Shown piece by piece: positions 138 through 47,462 of a stretch of DNA of 64,000 bases; within the stretch, counting starts at the first letter, position 1, and every line of letters starts with the position of its first letter. Both the position numbers and the translations under genes were made by a program. Under the pieces are notes generated by a model. That model was not told where the DNA came from and searched no databases. It was given only the letters and a program-made list of their open reading frames with translations. Source of the DNA: Patescibacteria group bacterium (GTDB lineage Bacteria > Patescibacteriota > Microgenomatia > UBA1400 > PJMF01); assembly GCA_045541795.1 (NCBI GenBank), contig JAZQJV010000018.1, forward strand, positions 197,134 to 261,133. The letters are read 5' to 3'.

Positions 138-1529
138 ATGACTGGCATCAGCCATGGTGACACCAGTCTCGCGCTGGAAAAGAATAATTTTTTCCTGGTC
201 GGGATTAAGGGAGTAGGGATGACAGCCCTCGCTTCCTGCCTGGTAGATGCTGGCAAATCTGTCGCCGGTGCCGATACGGATGAGCGTTTTCCCACCAGTC
301 GCAATCTCGAGCGGCTTGCTGTCCCCATTACTCCATTAGACGGCGATCTCCCCGAAGATACCCAAGTCGTCATCTACACCGGCTCTCATGGTGGCCGCAG
401 TCAACCTCTCGTCCAGCAAGCCATCGCTCGCGGTCTACCAGTCTACTCACATATGGAAGCTTTAGCCTGGTTTTTTAATCGCGCTCGCGGTATCGCTGTG
501 TGTGGTGTCGGCGGTAAATCCAGCATTTCTGCCATGCTCGCTCACATCACTGCCAAGAGTGAGCCCCAATCATACGCTGTGGGCGTAGGCGAGATTATTG
601 GTCATGACCGCACTGGCCGGCTTATAGACGGCAGCAAATACTTCATCGCCGAAGCTGACGAGTACATTGCTGATCCCACTACCATTGGCACGAGCCAGGC
701 GCATATCCGCTTCCTGTATCTGTATCCACAAATCATTATCTGTCCCAATCTCCGTTTTGATCATCCTGATGTCTACCGCGATTTTGCCCACACCCAAGAA
801 GTTTTCCTGCAGTTTTTCACTCAGCTCAAGACCGGTGGCGTCCTGATTTACAACGGTGACGACCCTCACCTTACCAAGCTTGCCGCCCAGCTGCGCGCCA
901 AACGTCCAGACGTGACCACCATTAGCTACGGCCGAGCCGATACTAATGATTATCCGCTTGCCAAAAAGAAAATTCAGCTGGCCATCCCGGGAGAATATAA
1001 CCGCCTCAATGCCTTAGCGGCCATGCTCGCCGCCAAGCAAATTGGTCTCACCGATGACATCATCCGCGACGGCCTGGCCTCATACCGTTCTGTCAAACGC
1101 CGGCTGGAATATTTGGGCAAAAGAAACGGCGTGGAGATCTGGGATGACTACGCCCATCACCCCAGCGAAATCAAAGCCGTCATAGCTGCCATGCATGAAA
1201 AATACCCCAAGGGGCGTCTGGTCGTGGCGTTCCAACCGCATACCTATTCCCGTACCAAGCAGCTTTTTGACCAGTTTGTAGATGCGCTGGCGACTCATCA
1301 CGAACTGTGGCTGCTCGATATTTTCGCCTCTGCCCGGGAAAAACTAGATCCCAGCATTACCAGTCAGATGCTTGCCCAGGCTCTCGCCCGTAAGTATCCT
1401 GATGTCAGCGTCCACGCTATCGGCACTGTGGCCGACCTGGCCGCCAAAATCAAGACTGATTTACACTCAGGTGACGTCTTACTCACCATGGGCGCCGGTG
1501 ATATTTACCACGCGGTCACGAGCGATTGA
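138..1529 (+). CDS. murC: UDP-N-acetylmuramate--L-alanine ligase
   Basis: N-terminal GIKGVGMTALA Rossmann motif, central GVGGKSS P-loop and a typical MurC C-terminus (FQPHTYSRTKQLF...LLTMGAGDI). Confidence 0.85.
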   Translation: MTGISHGDTSLALEKNNFFLVGIKGVGMTALASCLVDAGKSVAGADTDERFPTSRNLERLAVPITPLDGDLPEDTQVVIYTGSHGGRSQPLVQQAIARGLPVYSHMEALAWFFNRARGIAVCGVGGKSSISAMLAHITAKSEPQSYAVGVGEIIGHDRTGRLIDGSKYFIAEADEYIADPTTIGTSQAHIRFLYLYPQIIICPNLRFDHPDVYRDFAHTQEVFLQFFTQLKTGGVLIYNGDDPHLTKLAAQLRAKRPDVTTISYGRADTNDYPLAKKKIQLAIPGEYNRLNALAAMLAAKQIGLTDDIIRDGLASYRSVKRRLEYLGKRNGVEIWDDYAHHPSEIKAVIAAMHEKYPKGRLVVAFQPHTYSRTKQLFDQFVDALATHHELWLLDIFASAREKLDPSITSQMLAQALARKYPDVSVHAIGTVADLAAKIKTDLHSGDVLLTMGAGDIYHAVTSD

Positions 1530-1544
1530 TTTAGCGATCTGTCC

Positions 1545-1586
1545 TATATTATATCACAATATGTCAGTTTTGTCAAGAGGCAAATT
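1545..1586 (-). promoter_or_regulatory. Extended promoter motif copy overlapping the last codons and stop of murB
   Basis: The minus-strand sequence AATTTGCCTCTTGACAAAACTGACATATTGTGATATAAT simultaneously encodes the murB C-terminus N-L-P-L-D-K-T-D-I-L-stop. Confidence 0.45.
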
Positions 1587-2504
1587 GTCACGGCTCAAAT
1601 CTTCCCGGTAAATCACCACTTCTGGCCGCAACCACACGCCGTATTCATGATAGACGCAGGCCTGGATTTTGCGGGCGCACTCTAGGATGTCAGCCTGGGC
1701 TGCGGTGCCTTTATTGACGATAAAACTGCAATGTTTGCCGGTGGCAGCCAGGCAGCCTGTCCAATCTAAGTGTAATTGGTCAATCAAAAATCCAGCGGGG
1801 ATGAGGGCTTGCTTCGCAAATTGAGGAAACCTTGACTGCAGATCGGGTGTATTGGGCGGATTTTGCCAAAAACAACCAGCGCTTGGCTCACTGAAGGCTT
1901 GAGTTTGCCGTTTTTTGGCCATCAAGGCTCTGGCCTGACGCGCTAGTAAATCAGGATCAGCGCCTGGTGTGACTTTGAGCCAGACGTTGGTAATGACGAG
2001 AGCGGGATTTTTTTGCAGTCGAGAATAGTCATAGGCAAAATCTAGTTCGTCTGCGCTCAAACACAAAAACTCACCCCGATCTCGGTCAAAAACTTCGATT
2101 TTCTCCACGAACGCACCAATCAGGATACCGCCAGCGTGAGCATTCCCCCAGACAGCGCCGCCCACACTTCCCGGCAGCGTGGTAAAGTTTTCTAGGTTTT
2201 TCCAGCCGTTTTTGACTGCCTGCCAGGCTACCTGCGCTATCATGTCGCCGGCCCAGATTTTTACGCCCGTGCCGATCAAAGTAAGCGGCTCGCCAGACGG
2301 CATCATTTTCCAGACTAGAGGAATTTCGCCGTCTGGCAGGAGGCTATCGCTGCCCCCGCCCAAAATCAAGACTTTATCCTGACCGGCAAATTTTTGCGCT
2401 GTAATCAAGTCCTCGCGCGTGCGGATTTCCCAAAAACTAGACGCTATCCCTCCCACTTTGATACTGGTGTACGGGGCTAATGATACGTTTTTTCTCTCGC
2501 TCAT
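1554..2504 (-). CDS. murB: UDP-N-acetylenolpyruvoylglucosamine reductase
   Basis: FAD-binding N-terminus (LAPYTSIKVGG, LILGGGSDSLL) and MurB C-terminal domain. Internal ATG at 2504 chosen as start; the ORF extends to 2624. Confidence 0.85.
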   Translation of the reverse strand: MSERKNVSLAPYTSIKVGGIASSFWEIRTREDLITAQKFAGQDKVLILGGGSDSLLPDGEIPLVWKMMPSGEPLTLIGTGVKIWAGDMIAQVAWQAVKNGWKNLENFTTLPGSVGGAVWGNAHAGGILIGAFVEKIEVFDRDRGEFLCLSADELDFAYDYSRLQKNPALVITNVWLKVTPGADPDLLARQARALMAKKRQTQAFSEPSAGCFWQNPPNTPDLQSRFPQFAKQALIPAGFLIDQLHLDWTGCLAATGKHCSFIVNKGTAAQADILECARKIQACVYHEYGVWLRPEVVIYREDLSRDNLPLDKTDIL

Positions 2505-2574
2505 GCGGCCGATTATACCATAAAATTGCCAAAACTGCCAACCAAAACCCGTTTTTTTCTGGTATAATATAGCA

Positions 2575-3000
2575 GTGATAACGGTAAACCTATTTGTTAA
2601 CTCGCATTTCTTAGTCGACCGCAAAATGCTCCGGCAGCGGACGATAGATTTTTTGGCGGCTCACACTCTGGAAAACGCAATCGTCGACGTCCATGTAGTC
2701 GGCTCACACAAAATCAAGCAGCTCAACGAGCAAATTGGTCACGAGGGTGTGACTGACGTGCTGTCATTCCCGCAATACGACCCCAAAGAAAAGGATTTTA
2801 CCCTGCCGCCCGGCGTGCCGCGCCACCTCGGAGACATCGTGATCAATTACGCAGAAGCGGTCAATCAAGCCCGTAAACGGGGGAAAATGGTGGATGAGCA
2901 AGTCTGGTTTTATCTTGAACACGGCCTGCTGCACTTACTAGGCTTTCATCATGATGACGGTATGGAGGAAACTTATGTTCGCCCCCCGCTGGACTTATAA
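2575..3000 (+). CDS. ybeY: rRNA maturation endoribonuclease YbeY
   Basis: H..LHLLGFHHDD metal-binding motif (HGLLHLLGFHH) and length of about 140 aa. Confidence 0.75.
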   Translation: MITVNLFVNSHFLVDRKMLRQRTIDFLAAHTLENAIVDVHVVGSHKIKQLNEQIGHEGVTDVLSFPQYDPKEKDFTLPPGVPRHLGDIVINYAEAVNQARKRGKMVDEQVWFYLEHGLLHLLGFHHDDGMEETYVRPPLDL

Positions 3001-4045
3001 AAGTCATTTTAGCCTGCTCCAGTGGTTGGGGCTGCTGGCCAGCCTGACGATAATATCTGCTTTGATCGTGTGTTGGCAGATAAGCTCGACTTACCGCAGT
3101 TTTTTGCAGCAAAGCGGACTTTCTGGTGATCAGCTGTGGTCACTGATACGCCAAGCCGCGCTCACAAGCACCCTCAACCAAGACGGCCAGACGAGCCTCT
3201 TACTTCTGGGGACAGACGAGCTCGAGACGCGCCCGGGTAATTGGCCGCTTACAGACACCATGATGCTGATCAAAGCTCAGCCTGAGTTTAGCAACATCAC
3301 TCTGCTTTCGCTGCCGCGCGACTTAGTCTTGCCCGGGGACAAAAACAGAATTAACGCGATATATCCCATATTTTATCAAGAATCAACTCAAACGGCTGGG
3401 CTGGCGACTGCTCAGTATTTATCCAGCCGGCTGGATATACCCATCCATTATCAGGTAGTAGTCACGATGCGTGACGTCGCTGATTTCATTGATCTGGTGG
3501 GCGGGGTGGACGTGGAAATTGCCCGTTCGTTTATTGATTACCAGTATCCACGTGACGACGTGGACGTCACCACGGTGCGCGATCCCCAGCTGCTTTATGA
3601 GACGGTGGAATTTACTGCCGGCCCGGCGCATTTAGATGGGCCGACGGCGCTCAAATTTATGCGCTCGCGCCACGCTCAAAATGAAGAAGGCTCTGATTTT
3701 GCCCGCGCGACGCGTCAGCGGCAAGTCATTGAAGCGCTCGCCAGCAAACTTGGCGCGCGCTTTCGTGATGATCTGCGCCGTTATGATTTGCGCTTACTGG
3801 GTGAGTGTTACCAATTTTACAATGATCGTTTTGCTGATCAATTACCATTTACACACGCACTCGCACTGGCTTTAGACTTTCTCTCGCGTGAACGGCTACC
3901 ACAAGTATCCAGTGGACGCTTGAGCGTCGATGAGCCTGGCAGCGTCTTACATGAAAACAAGCGCGATTTCACGATTCAAGCAGACAGTCTGGAGGCACTG
4001 CGCGCGGCCGTGCGTCGTGAGCTTAAGTGGGGCAGTGGCGAGTAA
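2951..4045 (+). CDS. LytR-CpsA-Psr (LCP) family cell-envelope polymer transferase
   Basis: N-terminal TM helix, then LLLLGTDE..R...DTMML, LSLPRD, GGVDV and FMRSRHA...G.D..R..RQRQV motifs typical of the LCP domain. Confidence 0.75.
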   Translation: MMTVWRKLMFAPRWTYKSHFSLLQWLGLLASLTIISALIVCWQISSTYRSFLQQSGLSGDQLWSLIRQAALTSTLNQDGQTSLLLLGTDELETRPGNWPLTDTMMLIKAQPEFSNITLLSLPRDLVLPGDKNRINAIYPIFYQESTQTAGLATAQYLSSRLDIPIHYQVVVTMRDVADFIDLVGGVDVEIARSFIDYQYPRDDVDVTTVRDPQLLYETVEFTAGPAHLDGPTALKFMRSRHAQNEEGSDFARATRQRQVIEALASKLGARFRDDLRRYDLRLLGECYQFYNDRFADQLPFTHALALALDFLSRERLPQVSSGRLSVDEPGSVLHENKRDFTIQADSLEALRAAVRRELKWGSGE

Positions 4046-15293: not shown

Positions 15294-15333
15294 AAAATTG
15301 CCTCTTGACAAAAAGCCCATAATGTGGTATAAT
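15294..15333 (+). promoter_or_regulatory. Extended promoter motif AAATTGCCTCTTGACAAAA-N-TGGTATAAT
   Basis: TTGACA at 15305-15310, 17-bp spacer, TATAAT at 15328-15333, with conserved upstream AAATTGCCTC. Confidence 0.6.
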
Positions 15334-16794: not shown

Positions 16795-16826
16795 GAAAAA
16801 GGGCGAGCTTGTCTCGCCCTTTTTTT
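16795..16826 (+). terminator. Rho-independent terminator (GGGCGAGCTTGTCTCGCCC + T7)
   Basis: Perfect GC-rich hairpin followed by TTTTTTT. Two more hairpins follow at 16858-16922. Confidence 0.7.
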
Positions 16827-16977
16827 GGGTGAATTTGCCATTTCTGGCGGGTTTTGCCGCTTTTTTGGGGTACGCCGCCTTTTTCCCGCCAGCAAGTGCT
16901 GGAAAAACGCCCCTTGCGGGGCGTTTTTCCAAAGTTGTCTATTGACCCACTTGCGTGAAGTCCACATGTATTATACA

Positions 16978-26101: not shown

Positions 26102-26184
26102 GCCCTGGTGGTGGAATGGTAGACACAGCAGACTTAAAATCTGCCGACCGCAAGGTCATGCGAGTTCGAGTCTCGCCTGGGGCA
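26102..26184 (+). tRNA. tRNA-Leu (anticodon TAA), long variable arm
   Basis: Anticodon stem GCAGA/TCTGC with loop CTTAAAA. Extra arm present. T-arm GAGTTCGAGTCTC. Confidence 0.85.
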
Positions 26185-26221
26185 CGAGGTTTCACGAAAT
26201 GCAAAATTAAAATCTTTTCAT

Positions 26222-26231
26222 CCCCCCCCCC
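26222..26231 (+). repeat. Homopolymeric C10 tract 10 bp upstream of the -35 box of the DGR target-gene promoter
   Basis: ccccccccccattttgcccc TTGACA(26242-26247)-N16-TACAAT(26264-26269). Confidence 0.8.
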
Positions 26232-26404
26232 ATTTTGCCCCTTGACACGCGCGGCTATTGTGCTACAATGATTTGGCATCCGTGAGTAGTAAGTAACGTA
26301 GAAAGTAAAAAATCCAAAAAAACGCTTCCAAAAATAAAATGATGTAAACCATCTTGCTGTAGATAACCAAGCTATCTGCGCGCCTTAGAGAGTAGAAAGG
26401 CATT

Positions 26405-27769
26405 ATGTATAGCAAATTTTTGGGGCGTTTGTTCCTCACGGCTAGTTTCATCCCGCTGGCCGTGGGGCGTGCTGCCGCCGCCTCCAGCACTACCACCACG
26501 ATGAAACTGATAGACACCCCGCTGGCTGCAGTGGTGGGTACGGGGGGACGCGTCAATCTCATCCGCACGGCAGATAACACTTGGCAAGCCACGGATAACT
26601 CCAACTGCCCAGACGGCGCTGCTTATCCCAACGGCACTGCTCACTGTTTTGCCGCCAAAGGTGATTACACCGCCGCCCAGGTCTATCAGTACTCCTGCCG
26701 CAAGCACACCTGCTCAGCCGATACCGTGTGGAATCCCGCCTCAGGCACCTGTATCCCGATCGTGGATTACGGCTGTACCCACACCAATAACTTCATGACA
26801 CTGCAAGACTGGGACGGCTGTAGTGCTCTGGCCACACCGGCCGCCGGCGGCAATAATTACACCGCTGGGCCGTGCTTGATCGACAATCGCGACGGCAAGA
26901 CGTACAATGTCCGCAAATTTGCCGACGGCAAATGCTGGCTGGCCAACAACTTGAAGTTTGGCGGCGATTATCACTACTGGCACAATATCAAAGGTCAGTC
27001 AGCTGATACCTGCGCGCTGCGGCTGGGCAGTAAGTGGCAGTCTGGCGGCTTCAACAATCTCTATACCAATCAGTCTGCGGCCAAGCCGCCCACCAATCGC
27101 TTCTGGCAAGGCTCTTACGGCGACTGCGTCTATCCGTACTCATCCACCTCTAGTAGTGATGCCAGCAATAAATACGGCTATCTTTACAACTGGATGGCAG
27201 CCGTACAGTCTCCTTGCGGCTGGTATAGTCAAGAATGTGATCCTGACGCCATGGCGACCAATACCGACGGCAAAGGCACCTACGGGACGCAAAAAATCCA
27301 AGGCATTTGTCCGGAAGGCTGGCATCTGCCCACGGGCGGTACTGGTGGCGAGTTTAATATCCTCACTGACCGGGTTGCTGGTATCACTGGTGGCAGTAGT
27401 CACTTGGCCGATGAGTCCAATACTGCCGGCGGTTGTTATACCAAAGGTAATACTACCTGTGGTATTTGGTCTGATACTAGCCGCAATGGTGGTAACGGTA
27501 GTTACGTTTTAACTTTCTTCAACCCTGGAGGAGGTTTTAATACTACTTATGCCGGCCGTACCAATTACATTGGTGAGTCTGGGGCTACAGAAACTACTGC
27601 CGTCGGCCTGATCTACCAGGGGTCGAACGCGCGCTATTGGTCCTCTACTGCTAGGTCTACTACCAACGCCTACGGCTTGGACGTGTACAGCTCGGGCGTG
27701 AGACCCCTAGGCTACCATCCGGGCGACAGCAAGTACTACGGCTTTTCGGTTCGCTGCGTGCTGGATTAG
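26405..27769 (+). CDS. Secreted Fibrobacter-succinogenes-major-paralogous (FISUMP/DUF1566-like) domain protein; DGR variable (target) protein
   Basis: Signal peptide. Motifs DNRDGKTYNVRKFADGKCWLANNL, YGYLYNWMAA, CPEGWHLPT and GFSVRCV match TIGR02145-type domains. The C-terminal 58 codons form the VR. Confidence 0.8.
   Translation: MYSKFLGRLFLTASFIPLAVGRAAAASSTTTTMKLIDTPLAAVVGTGGRVNLIRTADNTWQATDNSNCPDGAAYPNGTAHCFAAKGDYTAAQVYQYSCRKHTCSADTVWNPASGTCIPIVDYGCTHTNNFMTLQDWDGCSALATPAAGGNNYTAGPCLIDNRDGKTYNVRKFADGKCWLANNLKFGGDYHYWHNIKGQSADTCALRLGSKWQSGGFNNLYTNQSAAKPPTNRFWQGSYGDCVYPYSSTSSSDASNKYGYLYNWMAAVQSPCGWYSQECDPDAMATNTDGKGTYGTQKIQGICPEGWHLPTGGTGGEFNILTDRVAGITGGSSHLADESNTAGGCYTKGNTTCGIWSDTSRNGGNGSYVLTFFNPGGGFNTTYAGRTNYIGESGATETTAVGLIYQGSNARYWSSTARSTTNAYGLDVYSSGVRPLGYHPGDSKYYGFSVRCVLD
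27588..27764 (+). repeat. DGR variable repeat (VR) at the 3-prime end of the target gene
   Basis: About 175 bp matching TR (30483-30655). It differs at 18 positions, every one an adenine in TR. Confidence 0.9.
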
Positions 27770-27959: not shown

Positions 27960-28946
27960 ATGACGACAAACTCCAAAAAAGCACCCATCAAAAATCAGGC
28001 CGCGCCGGCCAGCAACTCTGGCGTCGCCAAAAAAATCACCAGTGCGGGCGGCGAGCAAAGTGATCTTTTTGCCGGCATGGCTCTGCCGGAGGCGGCCAAA
28101 AAAGCCGAAGCTCGGGTCTTCAAGGTGGGCCTGAGTGCCAAAGAAAAAAAGACCGCCGCCAAAATCAAGGAAATCCGCAACCGCGACCACAAAATCGGCC
28201 TGATTGACGAGTGGATCGAGGCCGAAGACGCCAATTTTGACACGATCATCCTTCACAAAGAGTACGATATGTTTGTGGCTTTCAACCAAAGCGCTTATCA
28301 GCTGCGCGTCAAACTCCATCCTGGCCTCAAGCTCTACTTACAGCTCAACAAATACCGCCCCGAAGCCTTACGGGTGGCCTTGGGCAAAAATCAGCTGATA
28401 GACATCCGCCTGGCGGCCGAGGAAGCGGGCTTACAGATGCAAGAGTTCAAGGATGACAACCAAGAAGTGCAGACTATCATCATCTCCGGCCTCGCCACCA
28501 TCACCAGTGAAGAATTTAATAACTGGAAAGCCTCATACATTGCCAATATCGAAAAAGCCCAAGCTACCATCAAACCATTTTACGGCGACCTCAATATTTA
28601 CAAAAGTCTCATGGATCTATCCGTGATGGAAATGCACGCCGTGGGTAATTTCCCGCGTCACATCCGTGAGGTGATCGGCCCACAATTACTCTCACTAGTC
28701 ACGGCGGCCATCGCTCTCATCCGTGATGCCACCCTCAAAAAAGAAGACGAGCTGCCGCTGCCGCGCAAAATCGCTGTGGTGATGGAGCTGGAGAAAAATA
28801 TTGATCAGCAGGGATTTTTGCTACAGACATCTCTCAATCTCCAGGTGCTCAATACCGATAGCTTTGCCCGGCTCGCCAGTGTCATGGGTGAGCTCATCCA
28901 TCAGCTCACAGCCTGGAAATTATCCCTCAAAAAGAAACGGGCATAA
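27960..28946 (+). CDS. DGR accessory protein (328 aa; basic N-terminus, helical C-terminal region possibly Avd-like)
   Basis: Sits between VR and RT in the position usually occupied by avd, but is about 2.5 times longer than a canonical Avd. No recognisable enzymatic motif. Confidence 0.5.
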   Translation: MTTNSKKAPIKNQAAPASNSGVAKKITSAGGEQSDLFAGMALPEAAKKAEARVFKVGLSAKEKKTAAKIKEIRNRDHKIGLIDEWIEAEDANFDTIILHKEYDMFVAFNQSAYQLRVKLHPGLKLYLQLNKYRPEALRVALGKNQLIDIRLAAEEAGLQMQEFKDDNQEVQTIIISGLATITSEEFNNWKASYIANIEKAQATIKPFYGDLNIYKSLMDLSVMEMHAVGNFPRHIREVIGPQLLSLVTAAIALIRDATLKKEDELPLPRKIAVVMELEKNIDQQGFLLQTSLNLQVLNTDSFARLASVMGELIHQLTAWKLSLKKKRA

Positions 28947-28973
28947 GTAAAAAACACCGGTATATAGGCAAAA

Positions 28974-30227
28974 TTGAATGGTATCATGATCGTCGATCAA
29001 GGTGAAGTCTGGTTTGAAAGCCGCCGTCAGCAATATGTAGACAGTAATGACTGGCAGCTTTATGAGCGCCTCCTGACAGCTTATTTTGACGCCCGTCGCC
29101 ACAAACGCTCTACCAATAATCAGCTGGCATTTGAAATTGATTTGCTTCATCACGTCCAAGAACTATACGACGCCATCCATGATCGTCACTATACCCTCGA
29201 GCCTGGCATTGCTTTTGTGGTAGACGACCCCAAGCCACGCGAGATTTTGGCCGCCTCTTTCCGCGATCGGGTCGTCCATCATTTTGTCTGCAGTCTCATG
29301 ACACCGTACTGGGAGCCGCGTTTTATCGCCGACTCATATTCTTGCCGGGTGGGCAAAGGTACGCACTACGCGATCGCCCGGGCCCACAAGCACGCCCAGC
29401 GCCTCACGCACAATTACCGCGATGAAGCCTGGGTACTCAAACTCGATCTCAAGTGTTATTTTATGTACATTGACAAAGCCGTCTTGTGGGAGCTGATCCA
29501 GCCGATGTTTACGGCTGATGAGGATGCGCTCGCGGCCGGGCGCATCAGTGAGGAAGAGGCCCGCTATCATCTGGTACGCGGTTTTAATGACTATTTTGCG
29601 GCTGTTTTGGAATATTTGTTGCGGATCATTATTTTTTCCTGCCCGATGCTGAGCGTCCAGCTGCGGGGCAGACTTGATCGCTGGACGCTCCTTCCTGCCG
29701 AAAAAACCCTATTTATCGCGCCTTTTTGGCGCGGTTTTCCAATTGGTAATCTCACCAGTCAGCTGTTTTCCAATATTTATCTGCATGCTTTGGACTGTTT
29801 TATCAAATATCGGCTAGGCTTTACTCACTACGGCCGCTACGTAGACGATTTATACATGATGGATACGGATAAAACCCGCCTTAAGCGCGCCCGCACGGCT
29901 ATCGGTAAGTTTTTGGCCGACACACTTCATTTGCGCCTTCATCCTACCAAGGTGATTTTACAGCCCGTCAAGTACGGCTTTCCTTTTGTTGGTGGGGTAG
30001 TGCGTCCGCACTCCTGCGTGCCTACTCGCCGTTTCCAAAAACGCTACCAAAAATTTATGACCGGCCACTCTGCCCGGCATTACACCGAGTATCAGCGCTC
30101 CCGCATCGCTAGTTACCAAGGTCATGATACCAAGATCCGCCATCTGCCCGAGCCCAAGCGCACGCTCACACAAAAAAGGCTCAAAAGACTAGCCGACCAG
30201 CAGCAAGCGTGTATTTATCACCGCTAA
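28974..30227 (+). CDS. Diversity-generating retroelement reverse transcriptase
   Basis: RT motifs FRDRVVHH (1/2), SYSCRVGKGTHYA (3), LDLKCYFMYI (A), DGR-specific IGNLTSQLFSNIYL (motif 4, 29742-29762) and YVDD (29838-29849). Confidence 0.85.
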   Translation: MNGIMIVDQGEVWFESRRQQYVDSNDWQLYERLLTAYFDARRHKRSTNNQLAFEIDLLHHVQELYDAIHDRHYTLEPGIAFVVDDPKPREILAASFRDRVVHHFVCSLMTPYWEPRFIADSYSCRVGKGTHYAIARAHKHAQRLTHNYRDEAWVLKLDLKCYFMYIDKAVLWELIQPMFTADEDALAAGRISEEEARYHLVRGFNDYFAAVLEYLLRIIIFSCPMLSVQLRGRLDRWTLLPAEKTLFIAPFWRGFPIGNLTSQLFSNIYLHALDCFIKYRLGFTHYGRYVDDLYMMDTDKTRLKRARTAIGKFLADTLHLRLHPTKVILQPVKYGFPFVGGVVRPHSCVPTRRFQKRYQKFMTGHSARHYTEYQRSRIASYQGHDTKIRHLPEPKRTLTQKRLKRLADQQQACIYHR

Positions 30228-30482: not shown

Positions 30483-30655
30483 AAAAAACTGCCGTCGGCC
30501 TGATCAACCAGGGGTCGAACGCGAACTATTGGTCCTCTACTGCTAGGTCTACTACCAACGCCTACAACTTGAACGTGAACAGCTCGAACGTGAAACCCCT
30601 AGGCAACAATCCGGGCAACAACAAGTACTACGGCTTTTCGGTTCGCTGCAATGCT
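30483..30655 (+). repeat. DGR template repeat (TR)
   Basis: Non-coding copy of VR lying 255 bp downstream of the RT gene. Rich in AAC codons in the VR frame (aac x10, aat x2, aaa x1 at variable sites). Confidence 0.9.
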
Positions 30656-30698: not shown

Positions 30699-30728
30699 TT
30701 GACAACACCCCAGCCACGATCTATAATG
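30699..30728 (+). promoter_or_regulatory. Strong sigma70-like promoter (TTGACA-N18-TATAAT) with no downstream protein-coding gene
   Basis: attgacccTTGACAacaccccagccacgatcTATAATg. The next 490 bp on the + strand contain only short, low-complexity ORFs. Confidence 0.55.
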
Positions 30729-31216
30729 AACGCACATCTAAATCGTAGCAAAGAGGATTTTGAAGTTCGGTGTAGATTCAATCTCCTACTGCTAATTAGA
30801 AATCGAGCTTACGTAGATTTCTTCTTACCGTACGTAAGGTTCTGTAACAGCGTGTGGAGTCCAACGTCAAGCGCTTGGATGCGACCTGGTATCGGTTTCA
30901 TGTCTTCAGTCTTTCTCTTTCTTGTCTGAGGTTTCTTGCTGCCGGTAGTGGTGGGGTTGAATTGCGGATGCATTTGGGAAGCGAACTCACACCCGCTCGC
31001 ACACGCTCGCGCGGGCAGCACGCCGTTTGCAGGATAATTGCAGAAGAAATTAATTTTCCAGGCGTCATGCATATTTTCCGGGGGAAGAGACGAGCAAACT
31101 GCCGTTGGTGACCAAAAGGAGTTTTCATCCGAACTTTTAGACCTTTTAAATCACGATCATGACGTTATCGCTCGTGAGTATTATACCATGAAAAAGTTGC
31201 TTGATGAGATTAAAAA

Positions 31217-32350
31217 TCAAGGTAGGTCTAGGTGAGCAATAATTTCCTCCTCACTTGGCAAAACATTTTGTAGGCTGTAGGTCGAAATGCCGACTGGTTG
31301 CCCACTTTTCTCGACTGTCCACTGGGCAACGACACTGTTTTTCTCTTTACAGATTAAAAGTCCGATAGTCTGCTTGTCCTGAGGAGTTTTGATCAGATGA
31401 TCGACGGCATTACAATAGAAATTTAATTTGCTGACAAATTCCGGTTGGAATTTTACTACTTTGAGTTCCACCACGATAAAACGTCGCAGTTTATAGTGAT
31501 AAAACAGTAGATCAGGGGCATACTCGTCGCCATTTACAACTAGCGGTACTTGCCTGCCCACATAAGCAAAGCCCGTGCCGAGTGTGAGTAAAAATTGCGT
31601 AAGATTGTTTTCAATTGCCTGCTGTAGGTCTTTTTCTTGATAATTTCTTCTCAAAGTCAGAAAATCTAATTTGTAATTATCTCGCAGAATTTCCCGAGCC
31701 AAATCACCCTCTGTCTTGGGTAGTGTAAGGGAGAAATTGTTGATTGTCTTGCCTCTTGTCTGGTAAAGTTTGGTATCAAGCATATTAAGCAGTGTTGCTC
31801 GACTCCAGTTGTTTTCTCTTACCTGAGCAATAAAAAACAATGCCTCATTCAGTGATTTGACTTTGGTAAAAATTTCGATGTGATGCCGCCATGGGATAGT
31901 AAAGATAATGTCTAAATGTTCATCTTTCCAATGGTCAATAGACGCTGTCTGCGATTCTGCATCAGGCTGGTGCAAAATTAAACCCATGGTAGATTCGTCA
32001 CCGAGTTGGTGACGACTTGGCAAACCCTTGAACTCTGCACCAAGTTGGTGCAGAATTGGGCTGTAGAACTCGTAAAACCGTTTCATATAGCGGATATTTC
32101 TTGCAGAGAAACCTTGTGCATCAGGAAATTCCACTTTAAGATCACGACTTAAATTATCGTAAAAACGACTGCCGTATTTGTTGTCAAACTGCTTAGTAGT
32201 AATATCTCTCCCTATCCGCCAGTAAAGTCGCAGCATCTGTTCATTAACAGCAATACTGGCTTTGATTTGAGTGTGAGCAATGTCCTTCTTGAGCGTTGAT
32301 AACCAGTGAACGTATTCTTGATTTTTGCTCGCCAATAATTCACTAGACAT
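31217..32350 (-). CDS. YhcG-like PDDEXK-fold nuclease (DUF1016 family)
   Basis: N-terminal DUF1016 region and C-terminal PD-(D/E)xK-like core (APDLLFYHYKLRRFIVVELKVVKFQPEFVSKLNFY). Confidence 0.65.
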   Translation of the reverse strand: MSSELLASKNQEYVHWLSTLKKDIAHTQIKASIAVNEQMLRLYWRIGRDITTKQFDNKYGSRFYDNLSRDLKVEFPDAQGFSARNIRYMKRFYEFYSPILHQLGAEFKGLPSRHQLGDESTMGLILHQPDAESQTASIDHWKDEHLDIIFTIPWRHHIEIFTKVKSLNEALFFIAQVRENNWSRATLLNMLDTKLYQTRGKTINNFSLTLPKTEGDLAREILRDNYKLDFLTLRRNYQEKDLQQAIENNLTQFLLTLGTGFAYVGRQVPLVVNGDEYAPDLLFYHYKLRRFIVVELKVVKFQPEFVSKLNFYCNAVDHLIKTPQDKQTIGLLICKEKNSVVAQWTVEKSGQPVGISTYSLQNVLPSEEEIIAHLDLP

Positions 32351-32456
32351 ATCAGACTTTCTTTTTTATACTTATAATTTACCATAAATAGTGCAAAATG
32401 TCAAATTTTCGTGCAACCTCAGTATATTTCGGAATAAAAATTCCTATCAAACAAAG

Positions 32457-33551
32457 CTATCTAAACTGACCGTTACAATAGTGATCTATTAAAATTCTTC
32501 TGTCAATTGAATCAGTCACTTCGTTATCAATAAATTGTGCACAACTAATGTCTGTTGATTCATGCAATAAAAACTCTGTAAATATCTTGAGAACAGTTTT
32601 TATTTCGCCTGTTTGATTATTTACTGTAAAACTCACACTATAACAATGTCCCATGCAGATATCACTAAAGGGGTTAATTGATGCATCAAATCTCTCAATG
32701 TGATTAGCGTGATCTTCGTCCGTGCTGATATCAGTGATACTTCTAATATGAATGTTTGATAAAGGATAGCTATATTCTTGTTTATCGAAATATTCATCAA
32801 CCGTACCATTAGTTTTTTGCGTGGCGGCGATCAATGAATTTCTTTGTTTTTCTTCAACTTCTTCAAACTCGTCCAGCATGCCCAATTCCCTTAAAGCTAC
32901 AGCATTTGCGTCAAATATTTGCATGTCTGAGTAATAGTATGTCAAAGAATATACTTTGCCGTCATATATGTATAATGCCAATCTATCTCCTTCTTCTATT
33001 CCACCAAAAGGATTACTTAATTGTCTGGTTTGATCTTCGATAAATCCTAACAACAATAGAGCTTTTTTGGCTTGTTCATAATAGAGTTCCATATTATCTT
33101 GATTAACTTCAATTATCCAATAGGCCAAATCGTGATCAGAACCAAAAGAATGTCTAAATTGTGGGCCACTCATAGTTAAAACAGGTTCTAGCGATTTTAA
33201 CCTCCACCAAGTATCGATGCCAACGCCATGCCAGCCTTTGGATTGGCCATATTCCCATCCATCATATAAAAGAAGATATTTTGAAATCTTTTGATTCAGT
33301 TGTGAAGAGCTTTGATTTGCACCCTCTAAATCATCATTTTTTTCTTTCAAATTAGTCAATTCATTTTCGCCAATATTGTCTAATTCCAAATCATGGTCGG
33401 ATGTCTCTTGTAAAGAATTTTTGTCTGACTTTTCTATGGTGAAATTTAAGTACATAGCTATCACAGTCAATATACATAACACTGCTAAAACAAATATAAC
33501 TATCCTTTTGTAAAAAGGCTCTATTGCAGTAGCTTTGTTATTATTTGGCAT
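32457..33551 (-). CDS. Hypothetical membrane-anchored acidic protein (364 aa) in AT-rich DNA
   Basis: Single N-terminal TM then an acidic soluble domain. Local GC is clearly lower than the surroundings. Same strand as yhcG, 106 bp upstream of it. Confidence 0.45.
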   Translation of the reverse strand: MPNNNKATAIEPFYKRIVIFVLAVLCILTVIAMYLNFTIEKSDKNSLQETSDHDLELDNIGENELTNLKEKNDDLEGANQSSSQLNQKISKYLLLYDGWEYGQSKGWHGVGIDTWWRLKSLEPVLTMSGPQFRHSFGSDHDLAYWIIEVNQDNMELYYEQAKKALLLLGFIEDQTRQLSNPFGGIEEGDRLALYIYDGKVYSLTYYYSDMQIFDANAVALRELGMLDEFEEVEEKQRNSLIAATQKTNGTVDEYFDKQEYSYPLSNIHIRSITDISTDEDHANHIERFDASINPFSDICMGHCYSVSFTVNNQTGEIKTVLKIFTEFLLHESTDISCAQFIDNEVTDSIDRRILIDHYCNGQFR

Positions 33552-33628
33552 ATCTGCATTATTACATCACGTTTATATTTCTTATTAATCAAGATTATTC
33601 ACGATTGCGACGAGAAAGACCCTTTTTG

Positions 33629-33702
33629 TGACCCCAAAGGGATTCGAACCCTTGATTTTTTGGATGAGAACCAAATGTCCTGGACCGCTAGACGATGGGG
33701 CC
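33629..33702 (-). tRNA. tRNA-Glu (anticodon CTC)
   Basis: Acceptor GGCCCCA/TGGGGTC. Anticodon stem TTTGG/CCAAA with loop TTCTCAT. T-arm GGGTTCGAATCCC. Confidence 0.8.
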
Positions 33703-39828: not shown

Positions 39829-39868
39829 AAAATTGCCTCTTGACAAAACCGCCAAAATATGATATAAT
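39829..39868 (+). promoter_or_regulatory. Extended promoter motif AAAATTGCCTCTTGACAAAA-N-TATGATATAAT
   Basis: -35 at 39840-39845, -10 at 39863-39868, spacing 17. Confidence 0.6.
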
Positions 39869-46432: not shown

Positions 46433-46470
46433 AGTTGCCTCTTGACAAAATGACCTATATGTGATATAAT
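46433..46470 (+). promoter_or_regulatory. Extended promoter motif (AAGTTGCCTCTTGACAAAA-N-TGTGATATAAT)
   Basis: -35 at 46443-46448, -10 at 46465-46470, spacing 16. Confidence 0.6.
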
Positions 46471-47423: not shown

Positions 47424-47462
47424 AAATTGCCTCTTGACAAAATGACCAAAGTATGCTATAAT
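47424..47462 (+). promoter_or_regulatory. Extended promoter motif (AAAATTGCCTCTTGACAAAA-N-TGCTATAAT)
   Basis: -35 at 47434-47439, -10 at 47457-47462, spacing 17. Confidence 0.6.

Follow-up and report, generated by a model that had tools for sequence, protein, structure and literature searches.

The question raised by this locus is whether a run of ten cytosines lying just upstream of the promoter of a DGR-target gene is a phase-variation switch, as the initial annotation of the 64-kb window (the whole stretch of 64,000 nucleotides analysed here) had proposed. Part of that proposal stands, in that the tract, its neighbouring promoter and the DGR target each prove real and the length of the tract differs between strains, but an on/off function is unlikely given where the tract lies and how closely the promoter approaches consensus. 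The segment concerned runs from a tRNA gene to the start of the target gene and holds the following features, L042 being a related strain that is introduced below:

26102 to 26185, plus strand: tRNA-Leu(taa), found by ARAGORN and Rfam
26193 to 26213, plus strand: 21-nt A/T-rich unit CACGAAATGCAAAATTAAAAT, identical to the final unit of a 33-nt repeat array flanking a cassette in L042
26214 to 26221, plus strand: CTTTTCAT, replaced by AT in L042 and belonging to an indel-variable segment that adjoins the C tract
26222 to 26231, plus strand: homopolymer of exactly ten C (C10), corresponding to C7 in L042
26232 to 26241, plus strand: ATTTTGCCCC, a diverged copy of the promoter extension AAATTGCCTC directly 5' of TTGACA, and AATTTTTGCCCC in L042
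26242 to 26269, plus strand: sigma-70-type promoter, with TTGACA at 26242-26247, a 16-nt spacer, TG at 26261-26262 and TACAAT at 26264-26269
26270 to 26404, plus strand: 5' UTR predicted at about 128 nt, with GAAAGG as RBS, 100% identical between the window strain and L042

The sequence confirms the ten cytosines and the 10 nt that separate them from TTGACA, a distance that is 12 nt in L042. The tract begins 36 nt past the 3' end of tRNA-Leu(taa) at 26185, a neighbour that the initial annotation did not mention, and lies inside the 56-nt spacer between this tRNA and the promoter; with a transcription start site probably located near 26276 it would span approximately -54 to -45. The genes upstream are housekeeping genes encoding PGM, EF-P and CoaE, the last with a GTG start, and Rfam found tRNAs only over the window. 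C10 is the sole C or G run longer than six in the window, where runs of five occur 25 times, runs of six three times and a run of ten once. By extrapolation of the run-length decay, 0.0004-0.006 C/G runs of at least ten would be expected in the window, and a run reaching ten appeared in 2 of 300 third-order Markov simulations. When 62 kb of conspecific and sister-species loci are added to the window, the C/G runs of at least seven number three, and all of them are found in the interval between tRNA-Leu and the DGR target, namely C10 in the window and C8 and C7 in L042. C10 is not explained by chance. Mononucleotide G/C runs of ten are intrinsically prone to slipped-strand mispairing, and C10 indeed has the length that characterizes contingency loci, which for G/C runs is about 8-9 or more and beyond chance expectation.

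The first 12 nt of the CACGAAATGCAAAATTAAAAT unit (26193-26204) are identical to a short repeat bounding an insertion in L042, and the window contains neither a second copy of the 21-nt unit nor a recurrence of its 18-nt motif, and hence no sign of a regulon. When the sequence was inspected for UP-like A-boxes, AAAATTAAAAT was found at 26203-26213 just upstream of C10, with A/T runs that lack helical phasing. The DNA around C10 shows no significant structure (z = +1.4), and the region between tRNA and target has no similarity to the rest of the window or to the loci retrieved before L042.

That the gene downstream is a DGR target is borne out by its FISUMP domain, by the neighbouring reverse transcriptase and by the distribution of differences between its VR and the TR. 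The region is organized as follows:

26405 to 27769, plus strand: DGR target gene encoding 454 aa; the N-terminus resembles a signal peptide and the C-terminus carries a FISUMP domain (PF09603)
27591 to 27757, plus strand: VR, in the C-terminal end region of the target gene
27960 to 28946, plus strand: 328-aa ORF between target and reverse transcriptase, a presumed DGR accessory protein that is kept in strain L041
28974 to 30227, plus strand: DGR reverse transcriptase (PF00078)
30483 to 30649, plus strand: TR, nearly identical in three strains (the window strain, L041 and L045)

In the window VR and TR differ at 16 positions, all 16 of which are TR adenines, and the partial VR of L042 (positions 1-115 on the plus strand of that locus) likewise shows 16 differences from TR, again 16/16 at TR adenines. 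The two VRs also differ from each other, and solely at TR-adenine positions. Since the VRs of two strains depart from TR at TR adenines alone, the DGR is, judged by its sequences, active. Differences confined to adenines and a reverse transcriptase adjoining the TR are the features by which a DGR is recognized, and both are found here. The L042 contig furthermore ends inside the VR, as would be expected if the VR were heterogeneous in that population. The system resembles other DGRs with FISUMP or C-type-lectin-fold targets in its adenine-specific TR/VR relation, its reverse transcriptase and the placement of the VR at the C-terminus of the target, but differs in its 328-aa accessory ORF, for which a Pfam search returned neither Avd nor any other match, so that an accessory of the Avd type is not recognized by Pfam. 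This ORF is also much longer than Avd. At the junction between it and the reverse transcriptase (28942-28984) the window strain carries an extra 43 nt, and the reverse transcriptase ORF is 417 aa from a TTG start in the window as against 413 aa in L041.

A protein search returned thousands of homologues of the reverse transcriptase, and that of the JGI strain L041 (P0097) is 98% identical; despite this close relative in JGI, a metagenome scan with the reverse transcriptase protein gave no confirmed match. The target protein and CoaE have almost no relatives in the protein database, and no exact match was on record for CoaE, EF-P and the target (P0001) as encoded in the window, nor for P0002 and P0096. 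A scan of genome contigs with the target alignment retrieved distant FISUMP genes only, the closest being 45% identical and encoded in a goat jejunum MAG (L002), and upstream of that gene there is neither a poly-C tract nor a tRNA. A metagenome DNA scan with TTGCCCCTTGACACGCGCGGCTATTG, a 26-mer that spans the promoter spacer and is divergent in L042, found nothing, nor did a search of viral contigs using a conserved 31-mer of the 5' UTR. More distant homologues of the target were found on two contigs from different JGI samples (L043 and L044), but these are uninformative as an upstream comparison, being cut off 68-152 nt before the gene. Since both contigs stop at exactly the same base, something directly upstream breaks assemblies reproducibly; a repeat, a variable tract or a promoter sequence common to both could be responsible.

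The promoter assigned to the target gene likewise holds up. The TTGACA/TACAAT pair scored 11/12 with an extended -10 in a promoter scan, and it is credible because near-consensus matches are overwhelmingly intergenic: this applies to 17/19 of the sigma-70 matches of at least 11/12 in the window, whereas intergenic DNA makes up only about 10% of it. Perfect 12/12 matches number 11, all of them intergenic. The perfect sites have the form TTGACA-N16/17-TATAAT, mostly with TGn, and 16 near-perfect sigma-70 sites are intergenic, e.g. 15305-15333, 39840-39868, 46442-46470 and 47434-47462, as well as 60550-60522 and 56358-56330 on the minus strand. Alignment on the -35 hexamer reveals a common promoter architecture in the window, AAATTGCCTC-TTGACA-AAA, and no conservation among the aligned window promoters upstream of approximately -47. 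C10 directly abuts the 5' side of the diverged extension ATTTTGCCCC. Because the promoters share this extension and show no conservation further upstream, the C tract falls outside every promoter element that can be recognised. The notion that changes in its length would alter the geometry of the -35 region is contradicted by this arrangement, since the tract is upstream of every recognisable element of a complete promoter, the AAATTGCCTC-type extension included. A near-consensus promoter with an extended -10 should furthermore rely little on upstream contacts. The 5' UTR, for its part, has no significant predicted RNA fold (z = -0.7).

Further insight comes from L042, a 24-kb contig from an independent assembly (JGI 3300011008) that was found by way of its 96% identical CoaE (P0217) and comes from the sample in which the 98% identical reverse transcriptase occurs. 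Compared over 10.8 kb it is 97.1% identical to the window in nucleotide sequence, and the part spanning promoter and target is 96.2% identical, which marks it as a conspecific strain. Checking related assemblies for length heterogeneity, as had been proposed, gave C10 in the window and C7 at the same site in L042, and the tract length is consequently not strictly fixed. The length polymorphism among close strains that is typical of contingency loci is thus found here in one comparison of two strains, each represented by a single consensus contig. The bases adjoining the tract also differ by indels, CTTTTCAT being replaced by AT on one side and ATTTTG by AATTTTTG on the other, with a net difference of 7 nt. 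The 16-nt promoter spacer has 5/16 substitutions (P ~ 8e-5), clustered at 26251-26256, and reads CGCCCCTGCATTGTGC in L042 before TACAAT. The -35 hexamer, the TG, the -10 hexamer and the following 135-nt UTR, which includes GGCATCCGTGAGTAGTAAGTAACGTAGAAAG, show no difference between the two strains (141 nt, P ~ 0.014 at 3% divergence), and the coding sequence of the target outside the VR is 97.7% identical. This pattern suggests a constrained leader beside a hypervariable or recombined promoter segment. The changes are confined to 26214-26256, beside an insertion junction and a perfectly conserved flank.

Between strains that are 97% identical, a change in homopolymer length is as such nothing unusual, since several intergenic T runs also vary between the two, by 1 nt each (T7/T6, T6/T7 and T5/T6). 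The 3-nt change of the C tract with its flanking indels is the largest homopolymer change between the window and L042. Elsewhere, the intergenic interval 16820-16905 shows several differences in T and G runs between the two, and within it L042 carries an 11-nt tandem duplication, AAGTGCTGGAA, that is not present in the window.

From these observations it seems to us somewhat more probable than the contrary that C10 is a slippage-prone, strain-variable tract at an unstable junction, which either tunes transcription in a graded manner or does nothing at all, rather than an on/off switch. The length of the tract would shift by slipped-strand mispairing, possibly combined with imprecise recombination at the cassette junction. 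Each C gained or lost would leave the core promoter intact, but would move the upstream DNA by about 0.34 nm and rotate it by about 34 degrees. The DNA moved in this way would be the 21-nt A/T-rich unit followed by tRNA-Leu and, in L042, a cassette with a divergent promoter. The outcome would be a graded tuning of transcription at most, as in the rheostat model of Helicobacter pylori sabA, or no effect, and not a binary switch; sabA and Bordetella fimX are precedents for graded effects of homopolymers close to a promoter. Graded tuning or no effect is preferred over a binary switch because the tract lies upstream of a strong promoter, nothing is conserved past -47 in the other promoters and the A/T-rich unit is unique in the window, and on/off switching in particular is unlikely since a near-consensus promoter with an extended -10 should not depend on upstream contacts. 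The tract may nevertheless have a real effect on expression, since other promoters carry an A-run at approximately -47 to -43, part of which is replaced by C10, and since the A/T-rich unit upstream is conserved. Slippage as the cause of the length difference, like any effect on expression, is what we infer from the sequences compared.

A different reading is that the tract is a true contingency locus, in which slippage of the C run would switch or strongly modulate transcription of the target, for example by phasing an activator or alpha-CTD site such as the CACGAAATGCAAAATTAAAAT unit relative to RNA polymerase. This notion draws on the facts that the tract is long and rare, that it lies less than 20 nt from the -35 hexamer of a secreted or surface-type gene diversified by a DGR, that strains differ in the number of its C residues yet have a conserved core promoter and UTR, and that the A/T-rich unit upstream is conserved between the window and L042, and it can furthermore point to precedents of the sabA and fim types. 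In Bordetella, a C-stretch is found between the site of the activator BvgA and the -10 hexamer, inside the functional promoter, and its length decides between on and off. The tracts of Neisseria opc, porA and fetA are located within or overlap the -35/-10 spacer, where slippage controls expression, and in the vlhA genes of Mycoplasma gallisepticum a GAA repeat upstream of the -35 must have an exact number of repeats. The present tract resembles that of Bordetella fim2, fim3 and fimX in being a poly-C run in the promoter region of a gene for a surface structure, and it resembles the Neisseria and vlhA repeats in being a simple repeat at the promoter of a variable surface antigen. It differs from the Bordetella stretch in being found upstream of a complete -35/-10 promoter for which no activator is known, and from the Neisseria tracts in lying outside the -35/-10 spacer.

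How strongly such tracts can act is illustrated by Bordetella fimX, where a change of 1 nt in the C-stretch results in a 3.8-fold change of transcript (Gogol et al. 2007, PMC1891110). The functionally closest parallel is Helicobacter pylori sabA, where a homopolymer less than 20 nt upstream of the -35 acts as a rheostat by re-phasing UP-like elements (Aberg et al. 2014, PMC4081817). In both cases an intergenic homopolymer of strain-variable length precedes the -35 of a gene for a surface protein by less than 20 nt, and the spacing found here falls within that range in both the window and L042. However, the tract here is poly-C, a rigid sequence without intrinsic bend, whereas that of sabA is poly-T/A, and the promoter here is near-consensus with an extended -10 and belongs to a DGR-target gene of an uncultured gut bacterium. 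Several further points weigh against a contingency locus, namely that such a promoter likely needs no help from upstream, that other promoters lack a conserved element upstream of approximately -47, that the 21-nt unit is single-copy in the window and that the C7 of L042 is below the usual length of slippage switches. We consequently regard a true contingency locus as unlikely, albeit with an appreciable chance of being correct.

The poly-C may alternatively be a part or a scar of a cassette attachment or recombination site beside tRNA-Leu, altered by imprecise integration or excision and without any role in the promoter. L042 has an insertion of about 1.75 kb (1484-3239, plus strand of that locus) at a point corresponding to window position 26204/26205, between tRNA-Leu and the target promoter. 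In the orientation of the window, tRNA-Leu is followed by AGTTTCACGAAAAGCAA, C8, a 95-nt imperfect palindrome, a 91-nt direct repeat and an ATPase gene, after which come the second 91-nt repeat ending in CACGAAATGCAAAATTAAAAT, then AT, C7, AATTTTTGCCCC and TTGACA. The ATPase belongs to the AAA_14/DUF4143 type and is encoded on the opposite strand with a TTGACA/TATAAT promoter of its own. The 91-nt repeats are 96% identical and built of 33-nt units that each start with CACG (mostly CACGAA), and the insertion is bounded by the 12-nt repeat CACGAAA[A/T]GCAA, found in the window at 26193-26204. Since the repeat CACGAAAWGCAA is followed by poly-C at both cassette junctions, C8 at one and C7 at the other, the C tract may lie in or beside an attachment site, and the C8 at the far junction hints at an origin linked to recombination rather than at pure slippage. 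Imprecise recombination at an integration hotspot also fits the clustering of changes at 26214-26256 beside the insertion junction.

The sister species points in the same direction. In GCA_017431625.1 and six further assemblies, which have one common EF-P sequence, the order is EF-P, CoaE, tRNA-Leu(taa) and then, 28 nt on, tRNA-Arg, with no poly-C, no cassette and no DGR at tRNA-Leu. Because the sister species lacks both the tract and the DGR, the C tract belongs to a lineage-specific region that starts about 15 nt past tRNA-Leu; the 3' flank of this tRNA is the left boundary of the lineage-specific DGR region and, in L042, of the cassette insertion as well. In further agreement with a scar, the three tracts are the only C/G runs of at least seven in over 120 kb, the direct repeats of the cassette lie exactly at this site, and a second strain-specific island adjoins tRNA-Glu. 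However, no integrase, transposase or other recombinase gene is recognised in the cassette, and the spacing between the 12-nt repeat and the poly-C is inconsistent, being 0, 11 and 19 nt across the three tracts. One occupied site (L042) and one empty site (the window) are known, and the 1.75-kb difference between them may be an insertion or a deletion. That the poly-C is nothing but such a part or scar is in our view improbable. A repeat of the tRNA-Leu 3' end resembling an att site was sought downstream of the DGR but not found.

One may also imagine a system of two layers, in which the C tract sets the level or the on/off state of a surface protein with a ligand-binding tip diversified by the DGR while the poly-C/CACGAAA motif docks an ATPase cassette with a divergent promoter, but we consider this combination improbable. 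Full-text literature searches returned no paper describing homopolymer switches in Saccharibacteria-like bacteria and none linking a DGR target with SSR-type phase variation. Should the tract indeed tune or switch expression, this would accordingly be the first case found in the literature searched in which repeat-mediated expression variation comes on top of DGR diversification of the same surface protein, and an uncultured lineage of which the regulation is little known would then vary both the amount and the variant of a protein that faces the host or phages. What is firmly established goes less far and comprises a chromosomal DGR that is active, a homopolymer whose length varies between strains and an unstable junction flanking a tRNA.

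A function at the RNA level is very improbable, although some features of the region are compatible with it. C-rich read-through from tRNA-Leu could load Rho or insulate the target from the tRNA promoter; a terminator scan of the plus strand gave no terminator-like site from the tRNA to the target, the region does not fold stably, and the segment 26186-26241 is C-rich and G-poor. The suggestion is however purely inferential, a C run of 10 nt is far shorter than typical rut sites, and in the sister species tRNA-Leu is not followed by a tract of this kind. An artefact of sequencing or assembly, such as may arise from two-colour-chemistry poly-G reads and as is seen in the messy, clearly artefactual poly-C blocks beside N gaps in an unrelated MAG locus (L004), can be dismissed, since the tract in the window is a clean interior run that every assembly k-mer exceeds in length and that has no duplicated flanks, and since poly-C was independently assembled at the same position in L042. 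The poly-C of L004 (6414-6449 and 13850-13907, up to C24) was considered as a recurrent feature linked to FISUMP genes and rejected, its blocks being artefacts with an N run and duplicated flanks; they are a caution for homopolymers in MAGs in general.

Two observations concern the DNA downstream of the DGR. A perfect 12/12 promoter is found at 30699-30727, 50 nt past the TR and directed away from the DGR, and the approximately 490 nt that follow it (30728-31216) contain no convincing ORF, the only candidate being an 85-aa GTG ORF without a Pfam match. With about 98% conservation in L041 and L045, these nucleotides may specify a small protein or a small RNA. The strain-specific island mentioned above (31087-33627) has a low GC content, about 35-40% as against 50%, and abuts the 3' end of tRNA-Glu (33628-33702, minus strand). 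It encodes a YhcG/DUF1016 PD-(D/E)XK nuclease (31217-32350, minus strand) and a 364-aa protein without a Pfam match (32457-33551, minus strand), and it is replaced by 24 nt in L041 and L045. The end of the island next to the tRNA contains CACG motifs at a spacing of about 31 nt, which recall the repeats of the L042 cassette.
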